The notes beneath the pieces were generated by a model. The model had not been told where the DNA came from, ran no database searches, and saw nothing but the letters and a program-made list of their open reading frames with translations. From assembly GCA_964481855.1 (NCBI GenBank), contig CAYZUH010000016.1, positions 2,917-66,916 on the forward strand: DNA of 64,000 nucleotides, read 5' to 3'. Origin of the DNA: an uncultured Marinilabiliaceae bacterium. GTDB lineage: Bacteria > Bacteroidota > Bacteroidia > Bacteroidales > Marinilabiliaceae. Numbering within the stretch: the stretch's first letter is position 1; every line of letters starts with the position of its first letter. The position numbers were made by a program, and so were the translations under genes. This document shows positions 32,050 through 60,939 of this stretch, one piece after another.

Positions 32050-32222
32050 GATGGCCAAAGGTAGTAAAATTACGGTTGAGCCATCCAATCTCAAAACGTC
32101 ACAATGGAAACTCCCGCCCCCAGGCCTCCTAACAAAAAAAATCCTATGGCCGCGGGAGCAACTTTCATGTCCGTCGCCTATATTCGCCTTTGAAAGCCAT
32201 TTACAACTATAGCATAGAGAAA

Positions 32223-34907: not shown

Positions 34908-34922
34908 AAAAGACAGAAGAGC

Positions 34923-42546: not shown

Positions 42547-42663
42547 AGGTGTTTCTGTCTTTATGGTTTGTTTACGCAATATGTCATACGGGCAGGTGTT
42601 TTTTCTCCTAGGGCTCGCGCCCTAGGCCGCCTTATGTCGCCCCGTTGGGGCTGGCGGGGAGAG

Positions 42664-43746
42664 TCAAGGCGCGTCTTGCGAATCTTGCCGATTGAGTTCA
42701 AGGCGGAGAGCCTCAATCTCCTTTTGCTGACGGATGACGTGCAGGGTCAGCTCCTCAATCTTCTGCAGGAGGGCCTTGTTCATCTCGTGCTGCGAATAGC
42801 CGTCGGAGCGGACCTCGGCCTCGGACGGCACATCGGGGAGGTGGCCGTTCTCGCCCACGAATCGCTCCACCTCGTCGAGCGGCATGAGCTCGTAGCCGTC
42901 GGCGAAGACGAAATCGGACCATGAGTTGACGGGGGCGATGGCGTAGTCGGCCGAGAGTACCCCCTTGCGGCAGAAGACGTTATATTTCAGCTTGAGGGGG
43001 TCGCTTATGGCGGCGGCCCCATCGCGGTCGAAGCCCAGGAAGATGTTCTGGCCGTTGCCTATGTAGAGAGCCGTGCCGCTGTTGGCGCCAATCTCCAGCC
43101 CGTGGTTGGTGATTGTCCCCAGCCACGCGGCGGTGCGCCCCTCGTTGGTCCCCACGGAGGTCGTGATGTTGCTCTCGGTCACGGTGAGCGCCCCGCCCCT
43201 CTGCACGAAAGGCAACCGCGACTCGATGTGGCTGCCGGCCACCAGGAACGACGGGTTGTCGTCCGTCCCGCCGCCGCCATTGCCCCACAGGGCAATCCCC
43301 CCATAGGAGTTGAGGCGCAGCCACTTCTGCATCTGGCACGAGAGGATTACGTCGCCCTGCCGGCCGTAGCCGTAGTAGGAATCTATGCTGCCCGAAGCCG
43401 AGAGGTCTGTCATGACATATCGGTAGGCCACGAGCGAGCCGTGCGTCCCCGCCGCGGCGTCGGCAATGGCGTTGAGGTTGCCGTTGACGAAGCCGACGTT
43501 CTGCGACGCCGTGACCGGGTCGGTGGGCTTCCAGAGGAGCCAGCGCCCCTCGCTGTTGACAGCGCCCCGGAACTTGTCGGCTGTCGTGAACTGTATGCCG
43601 GTGAACGGGTAGGCCAGGGCCGAGTTGGCAATCCATTCGGGCTTGCCGGCCTGTCCGCTGCCGCGCCACATGTGGTAGTAGGTCTGGGCGGGGGCGGAGA
43701 GGGAACCAGCGCAAAGGCAAACAGACAAAAAGAATATCCTATTCAT
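42664..43746 (-). CDS. Secreted hypothetical protein with C-terminal coiled coil (tail-fibre-like C-terminal module)
   Basis: Preferred start MNRIFFLSVCLCAGSLSAPAQ at 43746; an ATG alternative lies at 43782. The C-terminus reads WSDFVFADGYELMPLDEVERFVGENGHLPDVPSEAEV...EMNKALLQKIEELTLHVIRQQKEIEALRLEL. I know this motif from Bacteroidota surface/tail-fibre-like hypothetical proteins; no family is assigned. Confidence 0.5.
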   Translation of the reverse strand: MNRIFFLSVCLCAGSLSAPAQTYYHMWRGSGQAGKPEWIANSALAYPFTGIQFTTADKFRGAVNSEGRWLLWKPTDPVTASQNVGFVNGNLNAIADAAAGTHGSLVAYRYVMTDLSASGSIDSYYGYGRQGDVILSCQMQKWLRLNSYGGIALWGNGGGGTDDNPSFLVAGSHIESRLPFVQRGGALTVTESNITTSVGTNEGRTAAWLGTITNHGLEIGANSGTALYIGNGQNIFLGFDRDGAAAISDPLKLKYNVFCRKGVLSADYAIAPVNSWSDFVFADGYELMPLDEVERFVGENGHLPDVPSEAEVRSDGYSQHEMNKALLQKIEELTLHVIRQQKEIEALRLELNRQDSQDAP

Positions 43747-43771
43747 AACTGAAAATATAATGCGCAACGTT

Positions 43772-46197
43772 CTACAATCCATCTGAAACTTCCACCGAGT
43801 CTATGCTCCCCATGAACCGTTGGCCACATTTCGAGTCGTACGCGCCAACAGTTATCTTGTCCATTCCCGCAACGAACGACGCGAACTGGAGGAATGCGAA
43901 AGCCCGAGCATTGGCCTTGTCGGCATCGGTCGGCACCTCGCGCTTCCAATCCCACAAGATTGCCTGAGGTTTCACCTCCTCAAATTTCAGTTCCGGGCAA
44001 CGAACCCTCAGCGCCGCCACTGCTTCCGCATCCTCGTCTTGACCACTCTTCAAGACTTCCAACGAGACCTCCACCTGCCGCCCCGCAAAAACTTTCCCTT
44101 GGGGCGGAGCAACACTCATCGAGGAAAACTCCACCCCATGCACCGTCATCTTCAAGAGAAACTCACCGTCGGACGTATAGTATAGCGCAATGTCGTTCTC
44201 GGCGTCACCGTGAAATCGCAGAATGGTCTGCAAGGCACCCCTGTACGTTTTGGGAGTGCAGAGACCACCTTAGCCACCCCCTGCATCAAGTTTGTCGGCT
44301 CGTAAGAATTCTGCGCAACCCGCCTGTTTGAAAACACCTCCGTATGGCACGGCATCTCCTTTGGGCTTGGCACAAATCTCCATCTCGTCCGCGGCTTATA
44401 GTCGTTGGCCGCCCTAGTGTCGAGAATATAGTCGGCCCCCGATGCCCTCTTGAATTGCAACCCATGGAACGTCGAGTTTCTAACCTTGGCCTCAAGGACC
44501 ACGGGCACTGCCGACAAATCGTCTTTCACCGATATGACTTCTCGTCTTGCCTCAGCCACCGACTTCATGTATTCAAACAGCAAGGCCTTGCCGTGGTGGT
44601 CTTTTCCGTCGAAGTTCCCAACGCTCTCGTAGTCGTCGGAGACCATCTCTGTGCCCCTCCGGCTGCTACCCATGCTCGCCGCCAAGAGGCCTCCAATGCC
44701 GCGCGGGCGTGAGGCGTCGTAGGCAAAAACAGACGCCACGACATAGCTGGAGAGGTCCGCGACCGAACGTCCGAGCGGGTCTTGTGTCACATCTGCGAGA
44801 ATCTTGGGCGCGAACTCCGCCCCATGGCGCAAGGCCTCGTAGAGCGACACCTTTAGCATATTGTCGATGCCGCCAGACGTCGGGATTGGCGACGTGAAAA
44901 CCGCCTCCCCGGCACCCGCTTTCAAGCCCGCCCATTTGCCACATTTGCCAAACGCCAACGACACTCCCGCAACTCGCCCTCCGACATGGCGCTGGTTCGA
45001 GGCCACGTAGTAGTACAGCAACTCGTTGGATGAAGACGAGTAGCGGCCGGCAGGAATGGGCTTCCCCATATTAATGCAACCGTGGTCGCCGCCTTGCGGG
45101 TCGGCTCCATTGTCAAGAAAGGGCGAACCCGGCTTGACGTAGAACCAATCTACGCCATTGTTCGAGAACGCCAACTCCGCCCTCTGCCTACTGTCCACGT
45201 CGGTTTCGGCCGTGGAGCCGAACATCGTGGCAATCCCCCACCAAACGTCGGTCTCAAAGCCGTCCATCTGAAAGGGCTGCAGGCTGTAGGGCTCCCACTG
45301 GCGCGTGGAACGGTCCAACGCAACGTCAACATCGAAATCGCCACTAGCCAACGCCGCGCCCAGGCGGGTCACGGTCTCGCGCCTGTAGCGAACCCGCGGG
45401 TCGCCCGACGAGAAAGGCAACACCTCCCCCGGCTTGAGCGACGAGCGTTTGGCATTGAGGCGCAAGAAAAGGTAGAAATCGCCATCGTGCTTCAGATAGC
45501 CCATATGGGTGTCGGCATTGATGAACTTGAAATTATATTCGAGCTGCGCCGACAGCCTGTCCTGCTTCATCTTGGAGAATCCGGTCAAAATGCCGTTGGA
45601 GTCGAACTCCCGCTTCATCTCATACCCGGCTACCAATGTGTTCTGCTTCTCCCTCTGCGGCAGATAGACCAACTTTACAGGCAGGCTGACGCCAAAATCC
45701 AAATCCTCATATATGCCGAGGCTCTCAATATCCACGGCAACGATATTGGTTGGCACGAGCCCCCGCCTGTAGGAGGGCGACAGCTTCAGCTCAACGTCTT
45801 TAGCCTGAGGGTCATACCAATAGAGCCCCGCATCGGGATGCCTCCACGTCGCGGGGTCTGACGTGTTGTTGGTGTAGACCATGACGCCGACCTTGGAATA
45901 GGGCACAGGAGAAGGGAAAAGAAAACAGGAGACGTAGAGCGAGAGACTCCCATCTGGGGCGACCATCACATTCGGCATTCCGTTTCCCAAATTCATCTCC
46001 CAAGGATATTTGTCGGGGTCGGGCGCAATTATGTTTTTGCCCCCATTGTGCTTTGTTGGCGGCACAACAAGCACATCGTCGGCCCCATAAGAGAACAGCG
46101 CAGGGTTTATGGCCGACAGATTTTGTTCTTGTTGCGCCAAGCCCCCAAGGGGCGGGAGCAGAGCGCAAACCGTAGCAAGTATACCACAACTCTTCAT
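43772..46197 (-). pseudogene. Frameshifted paralog of 51565-54036 (beta-propeller-like N-terminal part plus LamG-like C-terminal domain)
   Basis: The 683-aa ORF (44152-46203) and the 153-aa ORF (43772-44233) align end to end with the intact 823-aa paralog. The join ...PKRTGV|QTILRFHGD corresponds to ...QASTGVQTLLRFHGD. A 5-nt insertion (CCTTG on the coding strand, 44231-44235) breaks the frame. ATG at 46197. Confidence 0.75.
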
Positions 46198-46338
46198 CGC
46201 CACACTTCATTTTCCGACCCAAAAAACAGGAGATGGGACGCCCACCGCACCCCAAAGACGGCGGGCAACCAAAATTGGCGTAAGATGGGCGTCCGCATCT
46301 CCACACACTCACTTAACAAGCATCACACACTCAGCAAT

Positions 46339-48054
46339 TTAGTAGCCATTGTTCTGACTTATGTAGGGATTGGACTCTATCTCGGTTATGGGAATCGGGA
46401 GCCACTCGTTGACGCCCTCCTTGAAACCGAGATAGTACGTGGCGGAAATGACTTTCTTGAAGTTGGGGTCGGAAGCCTCCCTCTGGCGGAACGTCGGGGC
46501 GAGGTCTCCCCAACGCAAGAGGTCGTAGAATCGATGCCCCTCAAGAGCCAATTCGAGCATACGCTCCTTCTTGATGTCTTCCATCGTCGGATTTGGAATC
46601 TGAGCCATGTTCGCCCTGTCGCGAACCTGGTTGAAAGCCGCAGCCGCCGTCAAGCCTCCCCCCTGGGCGCCCCCATTCAGCACGGCCTCGGCGTACATCA
46701 GCAAGACGTCTGCATAGCGGATGTAGCGGAAGTTGACTCCATGGGCTCGCGGCTGGTTGTATATCATCTCGCGCACCCCGCCGCCAGTGCCGCCCCAGTT
46801 CGTCGGACTGTCGCCCCTCATGGGCAACGACAAGTCGAGATGTTTGAGGAACGCGGCCTTGTAGGGGTGCGTGAGCGGATTGACTGTCGTGCCGTCCACA
46901 GTGCAGTTGAAGCTCCCCGATGGGTAAATCTCGGTGAACTTATAGCCCCCCGGCCCTGTCGGCTCCGGCCGTCCCCCCAGCTTGATTTCTGAGTTCGTCG
47001 CGTTGAAGAAGATGGTGCTGAACATCCGCAAGTCCGTATTGCCATCTTTGTCGATTGAAGTTGCGAAAGCATCATACAGCCAATCGTGGACGACTCCCTC
47101 GTAGGCGGGACCCGCGCCGGGCAACATGAACCCACGGGAGTCGAGCGCCAGCCCAGAAGTGGCGGTGCCGGGGTTGAACCCATTGTTCTCGGCATCGCCA
47201 AGGAACTGAATCTCGAAGACCGACTCGTCGTTGTTCTCGTGCGCCACGTCGAAGTTGTGCGCATACTCCACAAGACGATACTGCCCATACGTCCCGTTGA
47301 TGACCTCGGCGAACTCCCTGGCCGCCTCCGTGTAGAATGTCGCCTGGTTTGCGCCATAGCGCGGCTCTATGCCGCTCCGCATCAGGTAGGCCTTACCGCG
47401 CAGGGCAGCCGCCGCGCCCGCCGTGACTCGCCCCCGCCTGTCTTCAGTCCAGTAGCCCTTTTTGGGCAGGTTCGCCTTGGCCTGCTCCAGGTCGGACAAG
47501 ATGATGTCCCAGACCTGGTCGGGAGCCGCGGAGGCTCGCACGTAGTCAGACCTGTTGCCCACACTCGTGATTGGCGCCACCTGCCGCCAGTTGGTCAACA
47601 AGAAGTAGTGCGCAAAGGCCCTCCAAAAGAAAGCCTCGCCACGGTATGCTCTCTTGAGCTCGGCATCGTCGAAATGCACGGCGTCTATGTTGTCGATGAT
47701 ATACGTAGCCTGCCCCGCGACGGAATAGAGCATCGTATAGGGCTGCTCAATGACGTAGTGGCTGCTGTTGAGGTCCGCGCCATACATCCCGGGCATGGCG
47801 TAGTCGGACCTCGACGCCGCCTCGTCGCTCCGGAAGACGACCCAGTGTGTGGCCATGGCCCCGAAGTTGCGCTGGGTCTGGATGTAGCCATAGCATGTCA
47901 TGAGCGCCTGGTTGACATCCTCCGGCGTGGAGAAGAAGCTGTTCATGCTTATTTGGTTGGGGCTGACCTCCAACTCGTCGAACGTATCGTCGCACCCCGC
48001 CGCCACAAAAGCGATCAGGACTGCCGCCGCCGACATCATATATGTCTTTTTCAT
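46339..48054 (-). CDS. RagB/SusD-family nutrient-binding outer-membrane lipoprotein (module 1)
   Basis: 571 aa with lipobox AAGC. The C-terminal region IKKERMLELALEGHRFYDLLRWG is typical of SusD, and it is adjacent to SusC. Confidence 0.9.
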   Translation of the reverse strand: MKKTYMMSAAAVLIAFVAAGCDDTFDELEVSPNQISMNSFFSTPEDVNQALMTCYGYIQTQRNFGAMATHWVVFRSDEAASRSDYAMPGMYGADLNSSHYVIEQPYTMLYSVAGQATYIIDNIDAVHFDDAELKRAYRGEAFFWRAFAHYFLLTNWRQVAPITSVGNRSDYVRASAAPDQVWDIILSDLEQAKANLPKKGYWTEDRRGRVTAGAAAALRGKAYLMRSGIEPRYGANQATFYTEAAREFAEVINGTYGQYRLVEYAHNFDVAHENNDESVFEIQFLGDAENNGFNPGTATSGLALDSRGFMLPGAGPAYEGVVHDWLYDAFATSIDKDGNTDLRMFSTIFFNATNSEIKLGGRPEPTGPGGYKFTEIYPSGSFNCTVDGTTVNPLTHPYKAAFLKHLDLSLPMRGDSPTNWGGTGGGVREMIYNQPRAHGVNFRYIRYADVLLMYAEAVLNGGAQGGGLTAAAAFNQVRDRANMAQIPNPTMEDIKKERMLELALEGHRFYDLLRWGDLAPTFRQREASDPNFKKVISATYYLGFKEGVNEWLPIPITEIESNPYISQNNGY

Positions 48055-48067
48055 CGTCTGAATGGTG

Positions 48068-51000
48068 TTAGAAAGAGAGGTTGAGACCGAAAGTGAACGT
48101 CCGCGTGTTGGGATAGGCGTTGCGGTCTATCCCGCGCTCCAGGAGCGTGCTGGAGCTGACCTCGGGGTCGAAGCCCGAATAGCCGGTGATTGTCAAGAGG
48201 TTCTGCGCAGAGGCGTAGAAGCGCAAACGGTCTATCCCGGCGCGGTCGGTCAACGACTTAGGCAGCGTATAGCCTATTTGCAACGTTTTGAGACGCAAAT
48301 AAGACCCATCCTCGACATAGAACTCGCTCGGCCAGGAGTTCCCGCCGGTCAGGTTGTCGGTCTTGGCAATAGGGATGCCGGAGTTGGTGTTTGTGGGCGT
48401 CCATGCGTTGAGGGCGTCCTTGACCATGTTGTTATTGTGGTTGAAATACCAATCGTATTTCTTGAGGTTGAAAATGTCGTTGCCCCCAACCCCATTGAAG
48501 AAGAGCGTCAAGTCGAAGTCGCGCCACCCGACATCGACGTTGATGCCGTACGTCACTTTGGGGATGGGGTTGCCAATGACCACCTTGTCGTCGGCCGTGC
48601 GCTCGCCGTCGTTGTTGGTGTCGCTAAAGATGAAGTCGCCATTGGCGTCGATGCCGTCAATCTTGTAGCCATAGAAAGAGCCTATGGCGTATCCCGGCAT
48701 TGCGATTGCCGGACGGTCGTTGAAAGAACTCGACATCATCTCCGAGGTCAGGTTCTGCACATTGGCCCCCAGAGCCAGAACCTTGTTGCTCAACGTTGTG
48801 GCATTGGCCGACACAGACAACTGGAACTCGTCCGTGAAGCTCTTCTTCCACGAAAGCATGAACTCCCACCCCTTGTTCTCGACCGACGCCGAGTTGATGT
48901 AGGGCGTCTCCCTTGTGCTGTTGATCTCGAAGACCTGTCCCGACGACGGATTGAGCTGAATCCGCGTCAGCAGGTCCTCGTTCTTTTTCTTGAAATAGGA
49001 GACGTGGAACGTCAGCTCGTTGCGCATGAAGCCCAAATCGAGCCCCACGTCGGTTGTCTTAGACGTCTCCCACTTCAGGTCTTGCGTCTTCATGTATACG
49101 GCTCGCGCGTCGACAAACCGTTTGCCACCCGTGGTGTAGGGCAACGGGCCGAAAGCGATATTGTCGAAATTGTATGGCGAAAGGAAATTGGCTCCCAGCT
49201 CACCATATGAGCCGGTAATCTTCAGCTGGCTTATGGGCCCGCCCTCCATGAATGCCTCCTCGTGGACATTCCACCCGACCGAAGCGGCGGGGAAGTAGCC
49301 CACGCGGTGCGCCTCGGCGAACTTCGACGACTCGTCGCGACGCAGAGACGCCGAGAGCAGGTAGCGATTGTCGAAATCGTAGTTGACGCGGCCGAAGAAG
49401 CTCAGAAGGGCGGCATTCTCCTCGCCGCTAGTCGTCTTGGTGTCCAGGTTGTTGACCGCCACAATGTTCGCGGCCCCAAGGTCGTCGATGGTCGTATACT
49501 CTTGCGACCTCGAATATTCGCGCATCCAGCTGTGGCCAATGGTGAGAGCCACGCCGTTGAGGCCAAAAGAACGCTCGAAGTTGAAAACATTGTCCCAAGT
49601 GATGTTGCCCGTCACCCCGCGGCTCTCCGAAAGACTGTTGCGCGTGTTGCCGTAGCTCGGATCGGGGGCGCCGTTGCCGAACCACCGGGTGTAGTAGATT
49701 GGCGTATGCGTATAGCCGTGGCTGCCGGAATAGTTGCCCCCAAAGGAGGTGGAGAACCGCAATCCCTCGACGATGTCAATCCCGACACTCGCCCCGCCAA
49801 TCATGTCGAACCAGTTGGTCCACTGGTCTGTATTGTAGATTGCGCCAAAAGGGTTCTGCCGACGCTCCTCGGCGGCCTCAATGTAGTATTGACTTCCCCA
49901 CGACGTGAAGCGCCCCTGGCTGTCGCGCACCGGCAGGGTCGGCATCCCGATGTTGAACGACGCCGTCGGGCGACGCTTGCGGTAGGAGAGCTGCATGTTC
50001 TCCGAGACCGACAGCCGGCCGAACTTCCACGACGAGTTGGCTCGCGCAGTGATTTTCTCAAAATCGCTCTTCACGATGACGCCCTTTTGCTTCATGTAAC
50101 TTGCCGAGAAAGAGTAGTTGCCGACATCGTTGCCGCTAGAGACCGACGCGTCGGCGTTGAAAATCGGGGCGCGCCGGGTGTACTCGTCGACCCAGTCCGT
50201 ATCGACACCAGGGTCTGACGGCGATACATTCTCGGCGGCGCGGGTCAGCCCGCTGTTGTCGCTCACCATGTTGGCGTAGCGGCGCCACTCTTCCGCGTTC
50301 ATGAAGTCGGGGACGTTTGCCAGCTTCTGGAGGCTGTATGAGAAGTTCACATTGACCTTCGGCTCTCCCTTTTGCCCGCTTTTGGTGGTGATGATGACAA
50401 CCCCGTTTGCGGCACGCGAGCCGTAGATCGCGGCCGCGGCCCCATCTTTGAGAACCTGGATTGACTCGATGTCCGACGGGTTGAGCGTCGTAAGCCCGTT
50501 GTTGCTGAACACCCCGTCGATGACGTAGAGCGGCGACGTCGCGGTGAGCGACGCGGCGCCTCGGACAAGAATCGTCACGTCGGCACCGGCAATGCCGCCT
50601 TGCTGAAGAATGTCGACACCCGCGGCGCGCCCCTGGAGGGCAGACGCCACATTGTGGGAAATCTGCTTCGCGACCTCGCCAGGGGCGACGACGGCGACAG
50701 AAGAAGACATCTTGCTACGGCTCATGGTTCCATATCCCACCACCACCACGTCGTTGAGCTCCTCGGCGTGGGAGACGAGGTAGATGCTTAGACTCTCTCT
50801 AGATTGCGCGGGGGGGGGGGGGTAAATTCTTGCGTGGCATAGCCAATAAAGGAGAATACGAGGGTCCGCCCCGGCTCTGCCAGCGTGAGGGAGAAGTTGC
50901 CGTCGGCGTCGGTAATCGTCCCGGTCTGCGTCCCCTTGACCAGGACCGAGACGCCGGGGATTGGCTGCCTGTCGGCCGAGTCGAAGACCCGTCCCGCCAC

Positions 51001-51084
51001 CACGCCCTGCGCCGCGGCGGCGAGCGGCGCGAGCAGCAGGGCCACCAGGAGGCAGAGCCTGAGAGCTGAAAACTTCTTGTTCAT
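48068..51084 (-). CDS. SusC/RagA-family TonB-dependent transporter (module 1), reading frame broken at a C13 tract
   Basis: The 5' ORF runs from ATG 51084: MNKKFSALRLCLLVALLLAPLAAAAQG plus a CarboxypepD_reg-like domain ...SFIGYATQEF. It stops 7 codons after the poly-C tract. The 893-aa ORF (48068-50749) continues in another frame with ...IYLVSHAEELNDVVVVGYG, a plug and a barrel. 14 or 11 C would give one 1005-aa protein. Confidence 0.85.
50810..50822. repeat. Homopolymer G13 (C13 on the coding strand) inside susC of module 1
   Basis: Counted directly: g at 50810, ten g at 50811-50820, two g at 50821-50822. It encodes the Pro run in ...QEFTPPPP. Confidence 0.95.
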
Positions 51085-51273
51085 ACGTTTTTCTTGTTTT
51101 GCGTTAAACATTCGGCGAATAGGGTGCGGCCGGGGGGGAGGGAGGTCTCTACATTGCGCCCCCCCCATCCCGGCCGAGGGGGAGGCGGCCACATTGCGTC
51201 AATGTTTTCTCCATCTACAGTCTTTAGCTAAACAGGCTGTGGTTGCGCGACGGTTTACTTAATTCGTCGAGTG

Positions 51274-51305
51274 CAAATATGCGCCATTAGGAAATTCAGA
51301 CCAAA
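51274..51305 (-). promoter_or_regulatory. Candidate Bacteroidetes promoter TTTG-N20-CATATTTG for susC (module 1)
   Basis: The minus strand reads aaaaTTTGgtctgaatttcctaatggcgCAtaTTTGcac. The spacing fits the -33 TTTG / -7 TAnnTTTG consensus, with C for T at box position 1. This implies a leader of about 180 nt. Confidence 0.45.
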
Positions 51306-51443
51306 TTTTGCGAGCAATATTTTATTATTAAGTTGAATTAATTATTCTTTTTGTCTTTTGCATGAATTTCGCCCCCCGGTTTTGGAGCTGAGGAGCCAAG
51401 GATAAGGCGCAGGGCGGCGGCGCACCCGGCGGGTGCGGAAAAC

Positions 51444-51478
51444 GCCCCAAGTTGCACCCGGCGGGTGCAACTTGGGGC
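51444..51478 (-). terminator. Strong hairpin (16-bp perfect stem, 3-nt loop), probable terminator of the upstream module
   Basis: gccccaagttgcaccc-ggc-gggtgcaacttggggc, followed on the minus strand by GTTTTCC. It lies 87 nt downstream of the stop at 51565. A second copy of the core palindrome gcacccggcgggtgc lies at 51422-51436. Confidence 0.55.
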
Positions 51479-51564
51479 TAAGACAAGATTGAGGAGGCCA
51501 GGAGACTCCGCCCATGCGCCATCCGCCCCGACAGGACTAGACAAGCACAGATAGTGCCCCAAAA

Positions 51565-54036
51565 CTATATGTCCCAAAAGTCACTATCTCCCTTTGGCAA
51601 AACATCCGCCACCTCGACATGGGATATTGTGCCGAGGAAGCGTTGAGAACACTTCTCGTCTCTCGCGCCGACTGAAATTTTGTCCATCCCTGGCACAAAC
51701 CCCGAGAAGCCGACATAGGCAAAAGCCCTCGCATTGGCCCTATCGGACGGAGTGACCTGCCCTTGCTGATGCTTCCACTGCCACAGGATGGCCTGTTGCT
51801 CGACCGCCTCGAAAGAAATCGACGGGCAGGACACCCGAAGCGTCACCACATCCTCCTCCGCCGCCTTGCCGTACTTCCTTGCCGACGTCTTCAAGGCCTC
51901 GACCGTCACCACCGTCTCCTTGCCAGCAAAGGTCCGCCCCTTGGGTGGAGATATTGCCACCCGGGCAAATTCCTGCCCATGCATCATGATGCGATATGAA
52001 AACGCGCCATCCGCCTCATAGCAGAGGCTAATGTTGTTGGCGTCGTCTCCATGGAACCTCAAAAGCGTCTGCACGCCTGTCGAAGCCTGGGGCGTGGAGG
52101 AAACAGCGACCGTCCCCCGAAGCGCGCTGGTCGGGACGAACAGATTCGGGCGGCGCAGCATGCCGGCGAAACTTATCGTCTTGCACGGATTCCGCGGTTC
52201 GGCGGGCGAGTAGGCCCAATAATGCCCGGATCTCGCGGCAGAGGCATTCTCGGTCTTTATGATTTTCCCCGTATGAGGCCCCCTCTCCACCATAAACCCA
52301 TAGAACGTGGCATTCTTCACTTTGGCAGACATCACGACGGGTATGTTCGTCATATCATCTTTCACAGATATGACCTTCGTGGGGTTCTTGTCCGAGAAAT
52401 CTTTCAAAAACTTGAAGAGGAGATTCTTATCGCACATGTCCACACCATCCACAACCGTCACAGACTCATATTGGTCGGAAGGTGTCGCAGTCCCTTCGGC
52501 ACTGCTTCCCATCGCGCCGGCCAAAGGCATTCCGAGGCCGTGCTCCTTTGTCGGGTCGTAGCTGTATAGAGACACGCTGACATAGCTGTCGAGCTGAGAG
52601 GTCTGCCGCCCCCTGGGGTCTTGCGTCACGTCGGCAAGAATCTGTGGCGCATAGCGCACATCGACACCGAGCGCCGCATAGAGCGAAAACGCGGCTAGAG
52701 TCTCGCCCTTCGCATCCGCCGAGTAGAACGTCTTCATGCCACCATTGGCCGCCAGCCCGGCCCACTTGCCATACTTTCCGACAGCCAACGATATGCCCGA
52801 ATTCCTATCTGAAACGTGGAGCTGGCGCGACGCGGCGTAGAAGTATAGCAAGTCGTAGGGATTGGCGGAATACCTCCCCGCCAGGATGGGCTTCGCCACG
52901 TTTATGCAACCGTGGTCGTCGCCATGCGGGTCCTCACCGTTGTCGATGAACGGAGTCCCGGGCTTGACGTAATACCAATCTGAAGCATTGTTGGAGAACG
53001 CCAACTCGGTCCGCTGCCTGTTGGCCACCGTCTCGTCGGCCCTGGTGCCAAATGCAGTCACCAGTCCCCACCAAACGTCGTCCTCAAACCCGTCTAGGCG
53101 AAAGGGTTGCATACTGTATGGCTCCCATTGGCGGGTAGACATATCGAGCGCCACGTCGATGTCGTAATTGCCGGACTCCAACCGCTCGCCAAGCTCTGTG
53201 ACCGTCTCGCGCCGGTATCGCATTCGGGGGTCGGGCGAGGGGAAAGGCAACCTTTCGCCCGGGAGCAAAGACGAGCGTTTCGCGTTGATGCGAGACACGA
53301 CATAGTATTTGCCGCCCTGCTTGAGGTAATTCATATGGGTGTCGGCATTTATGAAGCGGAACAGGTATTCATGCTGCGTCCGCACGCGGTCGGTTTTCAT
53401 ATCGGCAAAGCCGCTCAACACACCAAGGGGGGTAAAGTCCCGCCTCATCTCATAGCCCGCGATCAGATGGTTCTCCTTTTCGCGTTGGGGGAGGTATACC
53501 AACTTTATGGGCTTCTCGCCACCCGCATCAGTATCGTCAAAGATTCCGAGACTCTCGATGTCCACCGCGACAATGTTCGACGCCTGGCAACCTCCGCAAG
53601 GCGCGGGTGAAATCTTGTCGTCGGCACTCCGTCCGTGCGGATTGTACCAGTAAAGCCCGGCCTCCGGCCTTGTCCATTCTGCCAGACTGCTCGAATTGTT
53701 TGTATAGACGAATGCCCCAACCTTGGAGAAAGGGACGTCGGAATGGACAAGGAAACAGGACAAGTAGAGCGACAGATTGCCTTTGTTGTCCCTCAACACA
53801 TTGGGCATTCCATTCTCCAACTTGGCCTCCCAGGGATACGTCTTGGGATTGGGGCTGATTATGTTCCGCCCGCCATCGTACTTATCGGGCTGACGCACAT
53901 ACACATCGTCGGAGGCATATTGGAACAGGGCGGGATTAACGGCCGAAAATTTCTGCGGCTGTTGCGCCTCAGACATTCCCGGCGAGACAAGGTAGGCGCA
54001 AACCATCAAGACGCCCCTCCCTACACTAGCCCTCAT
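51565..54036 (-). CDS. Secreted hypothetical protein: beta-propeller-like N-terminal region plus C-terminal LamG/concanavalin-like domain, family unassigned
   Basis: 823 aa with a signal peptide. The central region ELAFSNNASDWYYVKPGTPFIDNG...LLYFYAASRQ resembles the propeller paralogs. The C-terminal LRFHGDDANNISLCY...ARAFAYVGFSGFVPGMDKISVGAR...RFLGTISHVEVAD is LamG-like. Its ATG overlaps the stop of gene D (ATGA). Confidence 0.6.
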   Translation of the reverse strand: MRASVGRGVLMVCAYLVSPGMSEAQQPQKFSAVNPALFQYASDDVYVRQPDKYDGGRNIISPNPKTYPWEAKLENGMPNVLRDNKGNLSLYLSCFLVHSDVPFSKVGAFVYTNNSSSLAEWTRPEAGLYWYNPHGRSADDKISPAPCGGCQASNIVAVDIESLGIFDDTDAGGEKPIKLVYLPQREKENHLIAGYEMRRDFTPLGVLSGFADMKTDRVRTQHEYLFRFINADTHMNYLKQGGKYYVVSRINAKRSSLLPGERLPFPSPDPRMRYRRETVTELGERLESGNYDIDVALDMSTRQWEPYSMQPFRLDGFEDDVWWGLVTAFGTRADETVANRQRTELAFSNNASDWYYVKPGTPFIDNGEDPHGDDHGCINVAKPILAGRYSANPYDLLYFYAASRQLHVSDRNSGISLAVGKYGKWAGLAANGGMKTFYSADAKGETLAAFSLYAALGVDVRYAPQILADVTQDPRGRQTSQLDSYVSVSLYSYDPTKEHGLGMPLAGAMGSSAEGTATPSDQYESVTVVDGVDMCDKNLLFKFLKDFSDKNPTKVISVKDDMTNIPVVMSAKVKNATFYGFMVERGPHTGKIIKTENASAARSGHYWAYSPAEPRNPCKTISFAGMLRRPNLFVPTSALRGTVAVSSTPQASTGVQTLLRFHGDDANNISLCYEADGAFSYRIMMHGQEFARVAISPPKGRTFAGKETVVTVEALKTSARKYGKAAEEDVVTLRVSCPSISFEAVEQQAILWQWKHQQGQVTPSDRANARAFAYVGFSGFVPGMDKISVGARDEKCSQRFLGTISHVEVADVLPKGDSDFWDI

Positions 54037-55739
54037 GCTCCCCCTGTTGGCACGTCCAACCCCGTCTCGCTAAGCCCAGGCCCGCCCCCGGCCGTGTAGC
54101 CTCGGCTCTCGCCTGAGGCCCACGGTGAGACCCAGAAAGAGTAGAGGTCGCCGTCTGTAAGGTAGAATCGGAAAGCGACACCCTCCCCGCGAAGAGACGA
54201 CAAGTCCTTACGTGTCTCCCATTCTATCCTCGCCTTGGTAGAATCGCCCATGAAGGGGCGGCAGTCGTCCTTGCCAAACCCGGGGATGGGCTCGCCGTCG
54301 GCGTCTAGGACCTCGACGAGCAGGCTCCCCCTCGCCTCCGCGTTCACAAACAGATGGTCGCCGTCGAACCGCACAACCTCGGTCTGCAAATACGCGCCCC
54401 CGCTCCCCTCAGACGCCCTCATCGAGACAAAACCGTCGCGGCGCAGCGTGGCAAGACCGGTAGCCGTCCCCGCATCCCACCACAGCCCGTCGGGATTCCG
54501 CCCCGTGGAGTATATGTACAGCGAATCGCCTACAATCAGAGGGACTCCGTTTATCGACTGCATATTCCCCATGTTCCAAGCCCCCGGCGTCTCGTCCACA
54601 CCCCAAAAAGGCTCATGGCTAGGACGCGAAAAGTGGAAACCGTCTCGGCTGTAGCCCAACATCAGCTCATTGCGTTTGGGAATCATGAGCCCCCTGGCAA
54701 TGTGGTTCTCCGGTCCCTGCCACTGGCTATAGAAGCCGAGAATTATGCTCTCGTAGGCAATGGCATCGAAGTTGTAGATCCCGGGGGCGACATCAGGGTA
54801 TTTTTCGTGCCGCTTCTCCTTGTCGTCGGGGGTGAACCAAAAGACGACGTGCTTGTCGGCTACACCCTCGCGCAGGCGGTGCGCAAGGCTCACGGCCTCT
54901 TCGGGGTCGTCGTGTTCCAGGTAGCTGCGCGACCGCCACGATACCTTGTCGTGATGCCTCATGCTCAGCACCCATTTGTCGGTGAACGGATTATAAAAAG
55001 CCGTCGAACGGTCGGCAATGGCGCCCGACTGCGCCACGGCGTCGGACCAATGCACTCCGTCCGCGCTGTATTTCAAGACATATTGCCACTGGATGTAGTC
55101 GGGCCTATACTCGACGTTGAAGAACTTGTATCGCTTTGCGGGGTCGGTCTCCCGCTTGTCAAGCCAGACGGTCGAGGCGTCGCGGTTGGCCGTGTCGCAG
55201 ACATTGGTTCCCGGCACGATGCCAAGGTCCGCCTTGACCCATCTCTTGCCGTCGTCCGATTCGGCATAGCACGTATAGAGGCTGTGCTTCTGCCTGCTGA
55301 CCTTGCCGGCCCCCGCCAAATACCACATCTTGAATTTGCCCTCGCGCTCGTCATACCAAATGCCGTCGGAGAACGGCCCGGCGTAGGGGAACCCCTCTGG
55401 CGTCAGCTCCCACTCCCTGTCGGCTTTTAGAATCGGATTCGCCGCATATTGCTTGGGCGAGTTGTAGACGCGTAGCATATTCGTCTCCTTGATGAGATAA
55501 TCGTCGACAAAGAGCTGCCGGCCAACGTTGATGGGGATGACCTGCGGCTTATCCTCCAAATAGGGGACAGGCATCTCCTGCGGCTTCTGCGGCTCGACGT
55601 AGCGCGGAGGCCACTGTCCTGGCAGGCGGATGCCGTTGTGCAGAACCCGCCCCGTCTCATCCGCCGCGTCTCCTTGCGCGCATCCGGCCATGAGGCATGA
55701 CAGGACGACAAGGGCGGCGGGAATTATACTTCTATTCAT
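54033..55739 (-). CDS. Lipoprotein, five-bladed beta-propeller glycoside-hydrolase-like (paralog D)
   Basis: ATG at 55739 gives MNRSIIPAALVVLSCLMAGC; the track start at 55784 is GTG. Contains NGIRLPGQWPP, VGRQLFVDDYLI, NPILKADREWE, PFSDGIWYDEREGKFKMWY, GYSRDGFHF, LRRDGFVSM and LYSFWVSPWASGESRGYTAGGGPGLSETG. Confidence 0.6.
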   Translation of the reverse strand: MNRSIIPAALVVLSCLMAGCAQGDAADETGRVLHNGIRLPGQWPPRYVEPQKPQEMPVPYLEDKPQVIPINVGRQLFVDDYLIKETNMLRVYNSPKQYAANPILKADREWELTPEGFPYAGPFSDGIWYDEREGKFKMWYLAGAGKVSRQKHSLYTCYAESDDGKRWVKADLGIVPGTNVCDTANRDASTVWLDKRETDPAKRYKFFNVEYRPDYIQWQYVLKYSADGVHWSDAVAQSGAIADRSTAFYNPFTDKWVLSMRHHDKVSWRSRSYLEHDDPEEAVSLAHRLREGVADKHVVFWFTPDDKEKRHEKYPDVAPGIYNFDAIAYESIILGFYSQWQGPENHIARGLMIPKRNELMLGYSRDGFHFSRPSHEPFWGVDETPGAWNMGNMQSINGVPLIVGDSLYIYSTGRNPDGLWWDAGTATGLATLRRDGFVSMRASEGSGGAYLQTEVVRFDGDHLFVNAEARGSLLVEVLDADGEPIPGFGKDDCRPFMGDSTKARIEWETRKDLSSLRGEGVAFRFYLTDGDLYSFWVSPWASGESRGYTAGGGPGLSETGLDVPTGGA

Positions 55740-55799
55740 AATCAACAAATTAGGGCGTTCGGACGTCAGCGGGGACGCTGACACCCGAAAGCCGTCTTC

Positions 55800-57461
55800 T
55801 TAATTCCACCCGGGGTTGTTGGCCGTTATATATGGGTTGCCCTCCACCTCGTCGATGGGAATCGGCAACCACTCGTTCTTTCCCTCTTGGAAGCCGAGGT
55901 ATGCGGAAATGTTGTACTGCTTGAAATTAGGGTCTTCCGCCTCCAACTTCTTGAACCTAGCCGCCAGCTCGCCCCACCGGAGCAAGTCGAAGAAACGGTG
56001 CCCCTCGCCGGTCAACTCTAGAATCCTCTCTTTCTTAATGTCCTCAATATTCACGCTCTGCAAGGCGGGCATATTGACGCTCTTCCTGGCCCTCACCTTG
56101 TTGACCGCCTCCATGGCGGAGAGAGACCGTTGCGTCGCCCCCGACACAACGCATTCGGCATACATGAGGAGGACGTCCGCAAAACGGATATAGGGGTAGT
56201 TGAGCCCGTTGGCTCTCAGGTTTCCGAACCACATGCCGTTGCCCGGATTCTTACTCGGGAGAGTCCAATCCATGCCCTTTCGGCACGCGCTCTTATATTT
56301 GCCGGCTTGCGCATTGACCGCGGCAAAGCCATCATCACCATAGTAATCCGCCCAAGTCATGCCGTCGACGACCGTCACGGCGTCACCCTCCTTGGCATTA
56401 ATCTGGGGGGCCTTGTCGTCGAAAATGAGCGTGCCGAACATACGGCTGTCGGTGTGCCCCTCGGCGTCTTTGCTATCCACAAAAGCCTGCCACACCCAAT
56501 CGTGGCAAACATGCGCATTGTTGTTCGCGAGCCGCGAGGGGGGCTGAGTCCCTCGGGGGTCTCTCCAGACCCCGCTCGTGGTAAGTCCGGGGTTGAAGCC
56601 GGTGTTGACGGCATCGCCCATGAACTGCAGCTCAAAAATCGACTCGTCGTTGTTCTCCGTCGCGACGCAAAAAAGGTCGCCATATTCATCCACGATGCGG
56701 TAGTCCCCGTGCCTCCCGCTTATCACCTCGTCAAAACATTGGGCCGCCTCGTTGTAGTAGTTCTGCGCCGTACCATATTTTGTCTCGATTCCGGTGCGAT
56801 AGAGATATACTTTCCCGAGCAAAGCCGCCGCGCTGCCACTCGTGACGCGCCCCAGGTCGTCCTCCGTCCAATAGCCTTTTGGCGGCAACAGCTCCTTGGC
56901 CCTCTGGAGGTCGGCGACGATGAAGTCCCAAGCCTCGTCGGGCGACGCTTGCGGGCGATAGTTCTTGGCAGAGGTGGGGAACTCGCTCATCAGCGGGATA
57001 TTGCGCCAATTGACCAGGAGGAAGAAATGCGAGAAAGCCCGGAGGAAATAGGCCTCGCCAAGATAGGCGTTCTTCAACTGCGCGTCTTCCATGTCCACGC
57101 CGGGGATGCACTCAATCATTTGGCACGCTTGCGAGGCGGCCGTGTAGAAAAGCTGGAACGGTTGCACTAGAGTGTACCACGACGTGGTCAGAGCCGTGCA
57201 ATACTGCCCCGGCACCCCATAGTCCGTACGGTCGCTCTCTTCGTCGCCCCTGTTGACGAGCAGACGGATTCCCGCCGCCCCCATGGCGCGGGGCGTGGTC
57301 ACGTAGGAGTAAATCCCCAAGACGCCCTGATTGAGCGTCTTCTGTGATGTATAGAACTGCGCGACGTCCATCTGGTTCGGATTGACCGCAAGGTCGTCAA
57401 AAACATCTTGGCAAGACGCCATCGACAGCGTGGCCGCGACGGCCGCGAAAATTCTTTTCAT
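55800..57461 (-). CDS. RagB/SusD-family nutrient-binding outer-membrane lipoprotein (module 2)
   Basis: 553 aa with lipobox MASC. IKKERILELTGEGHRFFDLLRWG. Roughly 45-50% identical by eye to the module 1 SusD. Confidence 0.9.
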   Translation of the reverse strand: MKRIFAAVAATLSMASCQDVFDDLAVNPNQMDVAQFYTSQKTLNQGVLGIYSYVTTPRAMGAAGIRLLVNRGDEESDRTDYGVPGQYCTALTTSWYTLVQPFQLFYTAASQACQMIECIPGVDMEDAQLKNAYLGEAYFLRAFSHFFLLVNWRNIPLMSEFPTSAKNYRPQASPDEAWDFIVADLQRAKELLPPKGYWTEDDLGRVTSGSAAALLGKVYLYRTGIETKYGTAQNYYNEAAQCFDEVISGRHGDYRIVDEYGDLFCVATENNDESIFELQFMGDAVNTGFNPGLTTSGVWRDPRGTQPPSRLANNNAHVCHDWVWQAFVDSKDAEGHTDSRMFGTLIFDDKAPQINAKEGDAVTVVDGMTWADYYGDDGFAAVNAQAGKYKSACRKGMDWTLPSKNPGNGMWFGNLRANGLNYPYIRFADVLLMYAECVVSGATQRSLSAMEAVNKVRARKSVNMPALQSVNIEDIKKERILELTGEGHRFFDLLRWGELAARFKKLEAEDPNFKQYNISAYLGFQEGKNEWLPIPIDEVEGNPYITANNPGWN

Positions 57462-57474
57462 GACGATATAGAAA

Positions 57475-60400
57475 CTATAGTTTCACACTGAGCCCGACAT
57501 TGAAAGTCCGGCTGTTTACTGTTGGGGCGTAGTTCTGGAGTCCGTCCAGGCCACGGTCGAAAAGCGTGTTGCTGCTCACTTCGGGGTCGTAGAGCGAGTA
57601 GTCCGTCAGCGTGAAAAGATTGGTGACCCCGACGTAGAGACGCGCGGACTGCACAAACCCCATTTGAGGGAACGAGTAGCCTAGCTGCAGGTTCTTGCAA
57701 CGGAAGTAGGAGCCATCCTCGACATAGAAAGAACTCGGAAGCGCATTGCCACCATTGCGGTTGTCGGTTTTTGCTATGGGAAGGGCCGCGGAACTGTTGG
57801 AGGCCGTCCAGGAGCCGCTCATGGCATCGCGCAACGTGTTGGTGTTGTAGTCGAAATAGAGGAAATACTTTCCCGCCGCAAAGATGTCGTTTCCGTGCGT
57901 CCCCTGGAAAAAGGCCGTCAAGTCCCAACTCTTCCACCCAAGGTTGACGTTGATGCCATAAGTGAAATCGGGAATGGGGTTGCCAATCACCTGCTTGTCG
58001 TCATCGGAGACCTCGCCCGGGGCTTTTGCCAATCCGTCCGCCCCCAGGAACATGAAGTCGCCAGTCTCGGGATTCACACCCATCACCTTGTAGCCCCAAA
58101 ACGAGCCAATGGGCAACCCCGCCATGGTGATGGACGGACGGTCGTTGAACTTGTCACTGAGCATATTGCCGCGGATGGGCTGGACCCCATCGCCAAGAGC
58201 CTTGACCTCATTGTCCAAGAAAGAGATGTTGCCGCTGAGGTCAACAGACCAGTCAGACCACGCGCGACGATAGCCGACGGTGAACTCCCACCCCTTGTTT
58301 TCGACAGACGCCGTGTTGTAGTACGGGACGTCGCCGTCGTTGATGATGATGGTCTGCCCCGACGACGGCAGCGGCTCCAGCGGGGCCAGCAAGTCCCGAT
58401 TCTCTTTCGAGAACCATTCGACCTCGAAAGTGAGCGAATTGTCTATGAAGCCGAACTCCACGCCGACGTTCTTAGACACGGCGGTCTCCCACGTGAGGTC
58501 TGGCTGCGCCAGGCGCGTGACGTAGCCGTTCTGACGGCTCCCTCCCCCGCTTCCAAAAATTGTGGGAACGGGGCCGTAGGCAAGATTGAGGAACGAATAG
58601 GGGTCTATGAAATTGGCGCCCATCTCCCCGTAGCTGGCGCGAACCTTTAGCCTCTGCATCCACGACAGGTTGAAAAAGCTCTCATTGTGCAAATTCCACC
58701 CCACACTGACGGACGGGAACCACCCGACACGGTAGCCCGACGCGAACTTTGAGCTCTTGTCGCTACGGATGCTGGCAGAGAGCAGGTACCGGCTCTTGAA
58801 AGCATAGTTCAGGCGGCCGAGGAAAGAGAACAGGGCGGCATTATTCTCCGCGGAGGTTATGGGCCCCTCGCCGTTGAAAGTGTTCACTGCGGCAGAACCG
58901 AGGTCGGCAACGCCCGAGCCGATTGCCATTGTCCGGTGAAACTCCCTCATCCAGCTCGTCCCGACAAGCACGTCGAACTCATGCCCGGCAAAATCGCCAT
59001 TGAATGTCAGCAGATTGTCTATCGTATAGTCGAACTCCTCGCCCCGGCTTTCGGACAGGCTCGTATAAGGCTGCGAAAAGCGGGAGTCCGGCGTCCCCCC
59101 GGCGTCCCAATAGGAGGCGTATTCGGGAGTGTGCGTATAGCCGTGGCTGTTCAGATAGCTCCCCGCCAAATTGAGCTTATATTTAAGCCCGGCAACCAGG
59201 TCGACAACGAGCCCCGCGCTGCCAACAATGTCGGTCTTGCGCGTCCATGCGTCGCGGTTGTAGATTAAAGCCAACGGGTTGGTGATGTCCGTTTTTAGGA
59301 GCGAATAGTCAAGCTCTTGGGGGGTGGATACATATCGCCCTCGGCTGTCTCTGACGGGAATGGTCGGTATTTGCCCAATGCGCCCTTGCGCAGACACCTC
59401 CTTCTTCTTGGTGTGAGCCAAAGACACGTTCTCAGAAATGTGGAACCTGCCGATGTCGAACGTGCTGTTGATTCTGGCATTATACTTCTCGTAGTCCGTC
59501 TCGATTACGATACCCTCCTGCTTGGTGTAGCCAAGACTGGCACTGAAAGTGTTGCTCTGCCCCCCTCCCGAAAGGCTCGCGTTGAGGCTCCACATTGGCG
59601 CCCCGCGGTAGTACAAGTCCTGCCAGTCTTGACTGTAGCCGGGGTTGGTCGGCGATACATTCTGCTCCGCACGCTCATAGCTGGGGCTGTTGTCCGCCAC
59701 CATGTTTGCGAACTGGCGCCACTCATCGGCGTTCATGAAATCCAGCTTCTTGGAGATTTTCTGCCACGACCAATTGCCGCTGACCTCCACATTGGTGCGC
59801 CCGCTCTTTCCGCTCTTGGTAGTGACCAAGACCACCCCGTTTGCGGCACGCGACCCATATATTGCGGCGGCCGAGCCGTCTTTCAGAATCTCGATGGAGG
59901 CGATGTCGTTTGGGTTGACTGAGTTCAACCCATTGAGGCCGACGGCCCCGTCGATGATGTAGAGCGGCTCGGTGCTGCCAAACGACCCGGCACCGCGAAC
60001 AACTATGCTAATATCGCCGCCGGCTTCCGCCCCGTTTTGTAAAACCTCAACACCGGGAGCGCGCCCCTGAAGAGCGGAGGCTACATTCGACGTCACCGTC
60101 TTCTGAATCTCCTCGGTTGGAACGGTAACGACAGAAGCCGTGACACTCGACTTTTTCTGCACGCCATATCCCACCACCACCACGTCGTTGAGCTCCTCGG
60201 CGTGGGAGACGAGGTAGATGCTTAGACTCTCTCTAGATTGCGCGGGGGGGGGGGGGTAAATTCTTGCGTGGCATAGCCAATAAAGGAGAATACGAGGGTC
60301 CGCCCCGGCTCTGCCAGCGTGAGGGAGAAGTTGCCGTCGGCGTCGGTAATCGTCCCGGTCTGCGTCCCCTTGACCAGGACCGAGACGCCGGGGATTGGCT

Positions 60401-60518
60401 GCCTGTCGGCCGAGTCGAAGACCCGTCCCGCCACCACGCCCTGCGCCGCGGCGGCGAGCGGCGCGAGCAGCAGGGCCACCAGGAGGCAGAGCCTGAGAGC
60501 TGAAAACTTCTTGTTCAT
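57475..60518 (-). CDS. SusC/RagA-family TonB-dependent transporter (module 2), reading frame broken at an identical C13 tract
   Basis: Same 5' cassette as module 1 (identical 134-aa track ORF at 60222-60626, real ATG at 60518). The 902-aa ORF (57475-60183) continues in another frame. 14 or 11 C would give a 1014-aa protein. Confidence 0.85.
60244..60256. repeat. Homopolymer G13 (C13 on the coding strand) inside susC of module 2
   Basis: Counted directly: 60244-60250 is seven g and 60251-60256 is six g. Confidence 0.95.
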
Positions 60519-60707
60519 ACGTTTTTCTTGTTTTGCGTTAAACATTCGGCGAATAGGGTGCGGCCGGGGGGGAGGGAGGTCTCTACATTGCGCCCCCCCC
60601 ATCCCGGCCGAGGGGGAGGCGGCCACATTGCGTCAATGTTTTCTCCATCTACAGTCTTTAGCTAAACAGGCTGTGGTTGCGCGACGGTTTACTTAATTCG
60701 TCGAGTG

Positions 60708-60739
60708 CAAATATGCGCCATTAGGAAATTCAGACCAAA
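60708..60739 (-). promoter_or_regulatory. Candidate promoter TTTG-N20-CATATTTG for susC (module 2), twin of 51274-51305
   Basis: Identical sequence within repeat copy 2. Confidence 0.45.
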
Positions 60740-60877
60740 TTTTGCGAGCAATATTTTATTATTAAGTTGAATTAATTATTCTTTTTGTCTTTTGCATGAA
60801 TTTCGCCCCCCGGTTTTGGAGCTGAGGAGCCAAGGATAAGGCGCAGGGCGGCGGCGCACCCGGCGGGTGCGGAAAAC

Positions 60878-60912
60878 GCCCCAAGTTGCACCCGGCGGGT
60901 GCAACTTGGGGC
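60878..60912 (-). other. Twin of the 16-bp-stem hairpin, here with no co-directional upstream gene to terminate
   Basis: Identical sequence within repeat copy 2. The core palindrome twin lies at 60856-60870. Confidence 0.5.
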
Positions 60913-60939
60913 TAACTTAGGCGTGAAAAGACAAGAGCA

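Follow-up and report, generated by a model that had tools for sequence, protein, structure and literature searches.

The stretch of DNA analysed here, hereafter the window, comprises 64,000 nucleotides of contig CAYZUH010000016.1 (assembly GCA_964481855.1) from an uncultured Marinilabiliaceae bacterium. It carries on its minus strand two paralogous genes for SusC/RagA transporters, susC-1 and susC-2, each directly followed by a gene of the susD family. Near the 5' end of both susC genes lies a run of 13 cytosines (C13), a length that puts both of them out of frame as assembled here.

Two susC genes with a C13 tract in the reading frame

Minus-strand sequence around the susC-1 tract reads GAATTTA-C13-GCGCAATCTAGAG, or in longer context ...GGCTATGCCACGCAAGAATTTA-C13-GCGCAATCTAGAGAGAGTCTAAGC..., and C13 separates the N-terminal frame of the gene from its 893-codon body frame. 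The N-terminal open reading frame (ORF) starts with the ATG at 51084 and encodes a signal peptide and a CarboxypepD_reg-like domain, of which most is present at 13 C, where the frame stops after 98 codons with the tail FTPPPPRNLERV (...GYATQEFTPPPPRNLERV) ahead of the stop codon. The body frame extends from 50821, inside the tract, to a stop at 48068 and encodes PPPPAQSRESLSIYLVSHAEELNDVVVVGYG, then a complete plug and barrel. The offset between the two frames is 335 nt, which is 2 mod 3. On rebuilding the gene in silico with 11 to 15 C, repeat number toggled the product between full length and truncation: 14 C gave 1005 aa and 11 C gave 1004 aa, both uninterrupted, whereas 12, 13 or 15 C led to a stop within a few codons. 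The frames, the 335-nt offset, the read-through peptide at 14 C and the early stop at 13 C had all been described for susC-1 in an earlier sequence-only reading of this DNA and were borne out by the translations.

Absent from that reading was the second C13 tract, which lies with identical flanks in the paralogous susC-2; rebuilt in the same way, susC-2 encodes 1014 aa with 14 C and 1013 aa with 11 C. The two tracts are the only long G/C tracts of the window, which has a G+C content of 60%. The next longest run of G or C is 8 nt, no other reaches 9 nt, and from base composition we calculate a chance expectation of ~0.015 for C or G runs of at least 13 nt in the window. A long, uninterrupted repeat inside the reading frame, well beyond chance, is thus found twice.

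Both tracts are embedded in a 752-bp direct repeat in which every base is identical, and the sequence-only reading had not mentioned that they belong to one duplicated 5' cassette. In coding-strand order the repeat holds a hairpin with a T-run, an AT-rich promoter region, a 5' untranslated region (5'UTR) of ~230 nt and the first ~118 codons with the tract. The hairpin at its upstream edge probably terminates transcription of the gene before it. Identity ends at 50730, within the last Gly codon of DVVVVGYG, which we take to be the SusC TonB box; past this point, in register, susC-1 and susC-2 share just 50-80% of bases. Coordinates are collected in Table 1.

Judged by its predicted domains and signatures, the susC-1 product at 14 C is a canonical SusC. 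The repaired protein matched TIGR04056 with 801.9 bits (cut-off 368.25; residues 29-1005) and the SusC/RagA signature TIGR04057 with 64.1 bits (cut-off 46.2; residues 205-235), and the Pfam matches were CarbopepD_reg_2 (29-115), Plug (124-229) and the barrel (430-963). The domain order of SusC/RagA proteins, namely CarboxypepD_reg-like domain, TonB box, plug and beta-barrel, is therefore present, with an adjacent downstream susD-family gene at both modules. An end-to-end alignment of the repaired protein with the solved SusC 8aa4_A shows the Pro run encoded by the tract as a 4-residue insertion in the loop that leads into the last strand of the N-terminal domain; the TonB box follows ~20 codons later. 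Consecutive prolines stall ribosomes without elongation factor P, and for an ON product with PPP to PPPPP such stalling might add a translational cost.

Table 1. Features of the two susC/susD modules in the window (positions are those of the window; aa, amino acids)
Feature	Position	Strand	Basis
Poly-C tract (C13) of susC-1	50810..50822	-	direct read
susC-1 N-terminal ORF at 13 C, 98 codons, ends PPPPRNLERV then stop	50788..51084	-	translation
susC-1 body frame (TonB box, plug, 22-strand barrel region)	48068..50821	-	ORF and translation
susC-1 ORF as called mechanically, 893 aa from GTG	48068-50749	-	ORF list
DVVVVGYG, TonB-box region	50729..50752	-	direct read
susD-1 (SusD_RagB, SusD-like_3), directly downstream of susC-1	46339..48054	-	Pfam
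Poly-C tract (C13) of susC-2	60244..60256	-	direct read
susC-2 N-terminal ORF at 13 C, identical to that of susC-1	60222..60518	-	translation
susC-2 body frame	57475..60255	-	translation
susC-2 ORF as called mechanically, 902 aa	57475-60183	-	ORF list
susD-2 (SusD_RagB, SusD-like_3), directly downstream of susC-2	55800..57461	-	Pfam
752-bp perfect direct repeat, copy 1: terminator hairpin (probable), promoter region, 5'UTR, first ~118 codons with tract	50730..51481	.
752-bp perfect direct repeat, copy 2	60164..60915	.
Perfect 17-bp hairpin then T-run, upstream repeat edge	51444..51478	-	hairpin search

Apart from these two modules, the window holds a third pair of TonB-dependent receptor and SusD on the plus strand (32190-36542). 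This receptor is without the N-terminal CarboxypepD_reg-like domain and without a long homopolymer, and is intact from MNIQPLF.... Each susD gene is followed on the minus strand by large genes of ~365-823 aa (39308-46203 after susD-1, 51565-55784 after susD-2), which form paralogous pairs with ~71% identical DNA; neither they nor the gene calls at their counterparts in relatives had a match in Pfam or NCBIfam. Comparison with the related locus L010 reveals a 2-nt TC insertion at ~44264, which divides a homologue of an 807-aa gene, situated downstream of susD-1, into two minus-strand ORFs, 44152-46203 (683 aa) and 43772-44233 (153 aa).

Tract length, reading frame and selection among relatives

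Searching with the repaired susC-1 protein, we recovered one cluster at ~95% identity with 15 members; susC-1-type and susC-2-type protein clusters were defined at an identity of at least 90%. The in-frame members of the susC-1 cluster are 1003, 1004, 1005 or 1006 aa long and carry FTPPP.., FTPPPP.. or FTPPPPP.., and the remaining ones, of 893 or 924 aa, come from out-of-frame DNA in which only the body or an alternative start was called. Among members that share an identical body, the difference lies at the tract. The susC-2 cluster is likewise divided into proteins of 1014 and 1057 aa versus 902, 933 and 934 aa. By our count, ~15 of 34 contig observations across the two clusters are in frame. 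Among species-representative genomes the single match was a metagenome-assembled genome (MAG) labelled "uncultured Marinilabiliaceae" (L006).

Read from the DNA of these relatives, the tract measures 10-16 nt, and lengths up to ~17 are implied by the proteins (Table 2). Both frame states occur among them. The length differs even between near-identical genomes. The alignment of L001 with L002 spans 18,994 nt and contains 17 mismatches and a single indel, the tract. Between L004 (C14, OFF) and L026 (C15, ON), 9046 nt hold a single 1-nt gap and not one mismatch; L005 (C16, OFF) and L025 (C15, ON) are separated by a 1-nt gap and one mismatch. Across 225 kb of related loci, the G/C runs of at least 9 nt are the susC tracts and one intergenic G9 only. 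Scans of Joint Genome Institute (JGI) metagenomes with a specific pattern of the tract and its flanks gave no match, and a looser pattern gave 11 unrelated matches that were AT-rich or outside susC.

Some further variation was observed in these loci. The few other indels between the near-identical contigs, seen in L003 (at ~2505, 7620 and 7702) against L004 and L005, fall in T7-T9 runs and in an intergenic AGTG tetranucleotide repeat. In L010 (6815-6850) the tract is joined by (GC)4, as against (GC)2 in the window, and P0131 and P0134 point to comparable variants. The adjoining dinucleotide repeat may be variable as well, or this may be an error typical of such sequence.

Table 2. Homopolymer tracts and frame states in related susC loci and clusters
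Locus or cluster	Tract	Frame state
Poly-C lineage
L001	C12	out of frame
L002	C15
L003 (SRR330365xx series)	C11	out of frame
L004 (same series)	C14	OFF
L025 (same series)	C15	ON
L026 (same series)	C15	ON
L005 (same series)	C16	OFF
L027 (same series)	C16
L007	C15	out of frame
L008	C12
L009	C12	out of frame
L010	C11 then (GC)4	out of frame
L006 (MAG, 88% identical)	C10ACCA, interrupted	in frame
Poly-G lineages
P0003 cluster, five in-frame member sequences	G8, encodes GSGGGK	ON
P0003 cluster (L013, L016, L017, L019, L020)	G9	OFF
P0003 cluster (L014, L015, L018)	G10	OFF
P0059 cluster (P0265)	G7	ON
P0059 cluster (L011, L021-L024; 22 contigs on record)	G8	OFF
P0201 cluster (P0279, P0283)	G8	ON
P0201 cluster (L012)	G9	OFF

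We then compared the coding sequences of six assemblies in which susC is out of frame (the window, L001, L003, L007, L009 and L010). Between them the ratio of nonsynonymous to synonymous substitution rates (dN/dS) of the body is 0.04-0.07 at dS 0.4-0.66, the near-identical pair of window and L010 having a body dS of just 0.0065. These out-of-frame bodies carry no extra stop codons. The N-terminal 87 codons, taken in their own frame, have a dN/dS of 0.15-0.35. Selection thus acts on each half of the gene, and so on two frames joined only by an in-frame tract. The ratios indicate that susC has been kept under purifying selection, strong on the body, and is not a dead gene.

A homopolymer at this place is not confined to the poly-C lineage. 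SusC clusters at 63-68% identity carry a poly-G run of 7-10 nt in the loop which corresponds, in the alignment, to that of the poly-C tract, with ON and OFF forms alike (Table 2). Some of these matches are N-terminally short, which the poly-G frame in the DNA explains. The tract is poly-C in the 60% G+C lineage of the window and poly-G in at least two other organisms; in most relatives the same loop is a GG, NG or DG turn. Among the public contigs, which also include Logan runs, only those of ENA and NCBI have names (k141_, k127_, NODE_) typical of MEGAHIT or SPAdes, which suggests short-read assemblies. The poly-G susC loci (L011-L024) stand directly after genes for a DHDPS-family (NanA-like) protein and an N-acetylglucosamine (GlcNAc) 2-epimerase, with a ROK kinase in L011; these neighbours resemble sialic-acid catabolism genes and may connect the loci with sialic acid or host glycans. 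In another loop of the N-terminal domain, before the strand ..LIFSYIGY, GGG or GGGG was seen in many Bacteroides-like SusC proteins (P0080, P0103-P0118, P0150, P0177, P0187).

The front of the gene also behaves as a unit among relatives. L010 is 99.2-99.5% identical to the window and is without 51482-60163 and one repeat copy. This gap matches recombination between the repeats exactly, so that the second susC/D module would be a presence/absence polymorphism or the window would hold the matching insertion; alternatively, the tandem arrangement could be an assembly construct. In other relatives this place, after purL and an acyltransferase gene, is occupied by a module of either the susC-1 or the susC-2 type. 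The N-terminal coding sequences of L001 and L007 are identical, yet one continues into a type-1 and the other into a type-2 body, two different paralogues; between cassette and bodies, similarity breaks off at the TonB box. P0003 and P0201 in a poly-G organism show a matching pattern of shared front and differing body. The tract-bearing 5' cassette is thus a conserved unit behind which different SusC/D bodies are exchanged or stacked, and the pattern resembles allelic exchange in which the exposed parts are replaced and the front end is kept.

Taking the poly-C and poly-G loci together, we entertain a broader possibility, which we hold to be slightly less likely than not: repeat-tract phase variation may be a general and overlooked layer of control over polysaccharide utilization loci (PULs) in uncultured gut Bacteroidales, with the tract in a conserved 5' cassette behind which recombination at the TonB box exchanges or stacks SusC/D bodies. 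ON/OFF switching would then be combined with the swapping of surface-exposed transporter parts.

The 5' region was also searched for other repeated or structured elements. The motif GCGCAATNTAGAGA occurs at 50796-50809, 51146-51159, 60230-60243 and 60580-60593 (4 matches versus 0.07 expected) and adjoins both C13 tracts and the G8 of the 5'UTR. As a recombination site it was discarded, since it is missing from the L003 lineage, which keeps the tract, and so is not needed. A hairpin of G-rich and C-rich arms in the 5'UTR (51127-51176 and 60561-60610) is kept in relatives with small changes in the length of its G/C runs; Rfam gave for the 5' region a sub-threshold microRNA match over this hairpin alone, which we take as spurious. 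The poly-G/poly-C pair 50809-50822 / 51159-51172 could pair in the mRNA. Inverted repeats of at least 40 nt were not found in 40000-64000, and those of at least 12 nt in 50700-51700 are the putative terminator hairpin, the 5'UTR hairpin, a GC-rich palindrome (51003-51026) and the poly-G/poly-C pairs, besides a weak 15-nt pair (51291-51305/51356-51370) that is 50 nt apart and 80% complementary. Control by an invertase of the Bacteroides fragilis type was set aside, as none of these repeats resembles the flanks of an invertible promoter, in a search directed at repeats and not at a recombinase gene.

Proposed slipped-strand switching and its alternatives

We consider it probable that the poly-C tract is a slipped-strand contingency locus in two paralogous SusC/RagA transporters. 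According to this proposal, slipped-strand mispairing in replication would add or remove C. With the flank of the window, 11, 14 or 17 C would place TonB box, plug and barrel in one frame with the signal peptide and N-terminal domain, which yields a full-length SusC and hence the ON state. All other lengths, including the 13 present here, would stop translation after ~94-99 residues and leave the barrel frame without a signal peptide, giving the OFF state. Through the common 752-bp cassette of promoter, 5'UTR and N-terminal codons, both susC genes would be transcribed alike, and each could switch independently, which would yield four combinations. Replication slippage would be the presumed cause of the length differences, and switching within a clone would be frequent and reversible. 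Its adaptive role might be escape from phage or antibodies targeting exposed SusC/D, or bet-hedging on a costly transporter. The sequence-only reading had likewise proposed a slipped-strand ON/OFF switch for susC-1, and it gains support from the lengths of 10-16 nt in relatives, from the tract being their sole or main indel and from purifying selection on the gene.

Several points weigh against this proposal. Homopolymers of 11-16 nt are error-prone on all sequencing platforms, and the evidence consists of assembled contigs; heterogeneity within samples and reversibility within a clone are presumed, and the benefit of switching is inferred in its entirety. Assemblers choose one path through mixtures, and some of the length differences could be technical. 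One alternative is a sequencing or assembly artefact, in which the true tract is in frame (for instance with 14 C), susC is intact and the length differences in public data are homopolymer noise. Long G/C homopolymers are generally known to be miscalled by long-read and short-read platforms alike, the proteins of the window itself are recorded from an NCBI assembly without stated technology, and the two copies are identical across 752 bp, as expected if polishing could not assign reads, so that the exact 13 in both may stem from the polishing of repeat copies that reads cannot tell apart. Yet independent assemblies span 10-16 nt with differences of up to 5 nt, and other homopolymers in the same contigs (T7-T9, G8) move by at most 1 nt and rarely. 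Between the window and L010 no homopolymer of at least 8 nt has an indel except the tract, and the other indels in the genes compared are only a 3-nt in-frame one and the 2-nt TC insertion; this stability suggests that the assembly is not riddled with homopolymer errors. Moreover, the shorter G7-G10 tracts of the other lineages, which we expect to be read reliably, show the ON/OFF split across many samples. We therefore regard an artefact as unlikely. The one-base undercall that the sequence-only reading had named as the mundane explanation may still apply to the exact number 13, and it is irrelevant to the nature of the tract.

It is somewhat less probable still that both susC genes are fixed pseudogenes in a decaying locus, with the tract as the mere site of an inactivating mutation. 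That both are out of frame would agree with such decay, as would the 2-nt TC insertion that splits the gene downstream of susD-1 in module 1 and is absent from the 99.5%-identical L010, a further point that weighs against a functional switch. Against decay stand a body dN/dS of 0.04-0.07 without secondary stops, in lineages at dS 0.4-0.66 that were all sampled out of frame, the alternation of in-frame and out-of-frame alleles among otherwise identical contigs, and the in-frame share of the contig observations noted above. We give equally little credence to recoding, by which slippage of RNA polymerase or ribosomal frameshifting on the C-run and Pro codons would produce some full-length SusC and the DNA would merely set the level. 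It is generally known that long homopolymers favour slippage during transcription in bacteria, with the best documentation for A/T runs. Programmed sites, however, keep one fixed out-of-frame arrangement, and the relatives here do not conserve one: they have in-frame alleles and represent all three frame classes. In-frame alleles of several lengths fit variation at the level of DNA. Recoding might nevertheless make the OFF state of a slipped-strand switch leaky.

Meaning and relation to known systems

If these tracts switch, the glycan-uptake machinery of uncultured gut Bacteroidales would be partly stochastic, ON or OFF in each cell. The PUL content of such organisms would be harder to infer from genomes, and calls of "frameshifted pseudogene" would be wrong. 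Switching would further suggest that the exposed SusC/D surface is under selection, for instance from phage, antibody or bacteriocins. DNA invertases are currently credited with phase variation in gut Bacteroidota, and detection tools based on inversion can be expected to miss switches of this kind. The idea is directly testable in existing metagenomic reads.

In the literature searched, the coverage of which is incomplete so that absence of evidence is all it can offer, no SusC-type gene was found with a homopolymer or slipped-strand switch, in line with the sequence-only reading, which knew of no established example in this family. For Bacteroides, a 2025 review lists DNA inversion and no other mechanism of phase variation (PMC11868660). 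The system known for the same target is the switching of SusC/SusD by an invertase in Bacteroides fragilis (2009, PMC2747901, as cited in PMC11868660). It shares with the proposed switch the target family and the expected phenotype, SusC/D complexes that are ON or OFF within a population of gut Bacteroidota. The two differ in the variable element, which in B. fragilis is a site-specific inversion between inverted repeats driven by a recombinase and here is a homopolymer within the reading frame.

With regard to mechanism, HmbR and HpuAB of Neisseria meningitidis are TonB-dependent haemoglobin receptors that undergo poly-G phase variation (PMC3786947). As in the SusC genes described here, a G/C homopolymer lies within the coding frame of a TonB-dependent outer-membrane receptor, its length shifts the frame ON or OFF and isolates are found in both states. 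Unlike SusC, these receptors belong to a proteobacterial pathogen, take iron or haem as substrate and act without a SusD lipoprotein partner, whereas the SusC tract is placed in the N-terminal CarboxypepD_reg-like domain typical of SusC, with an identical 5' cassette shared by two paralogues. Switching rates have been measured in Neisseria. The poly-G/C contingency loci of Campylobacter jejuni and Helicobacter (PMC8355987, PMC2823697) resemble it in their intragenic G/C tracts, of ~8-13 nt in surface-structure genes, which occur in several lengths among isolates. Both belong to the Campylobacterota, are AT-rich and have dozens of such tracts per genome; by contrast, the window has two long tracts only, at 60% G+C.

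A further parallel is offered by the homopolymer frameshifts in glpK of Mycobacterium tuberculosis (10.1101/717272; PMC10334774), where likewise a C-run stands in the reading frame of a gene in a GC-rich genome and the reversible gain or loss of bases alters the phenotype. Tracts of the glpK type are short and change at lower rates, whereas the tract described here spans 11-16 nt with both states common; the 2025 review argues that most such loci of M. tuberculosis are prone to mutation and not cases of true phase variation (PMC11868660). The closest systems in mechanism are HmbR/HpuAB of Neisseria and the G/C loci of Campylobacter, and the closest in target the invertase switching of B. fragilis. 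The type of switch proposed here is thus a known one, and what is new for it is the gene family and the phylum, with hints of a wider pattern.

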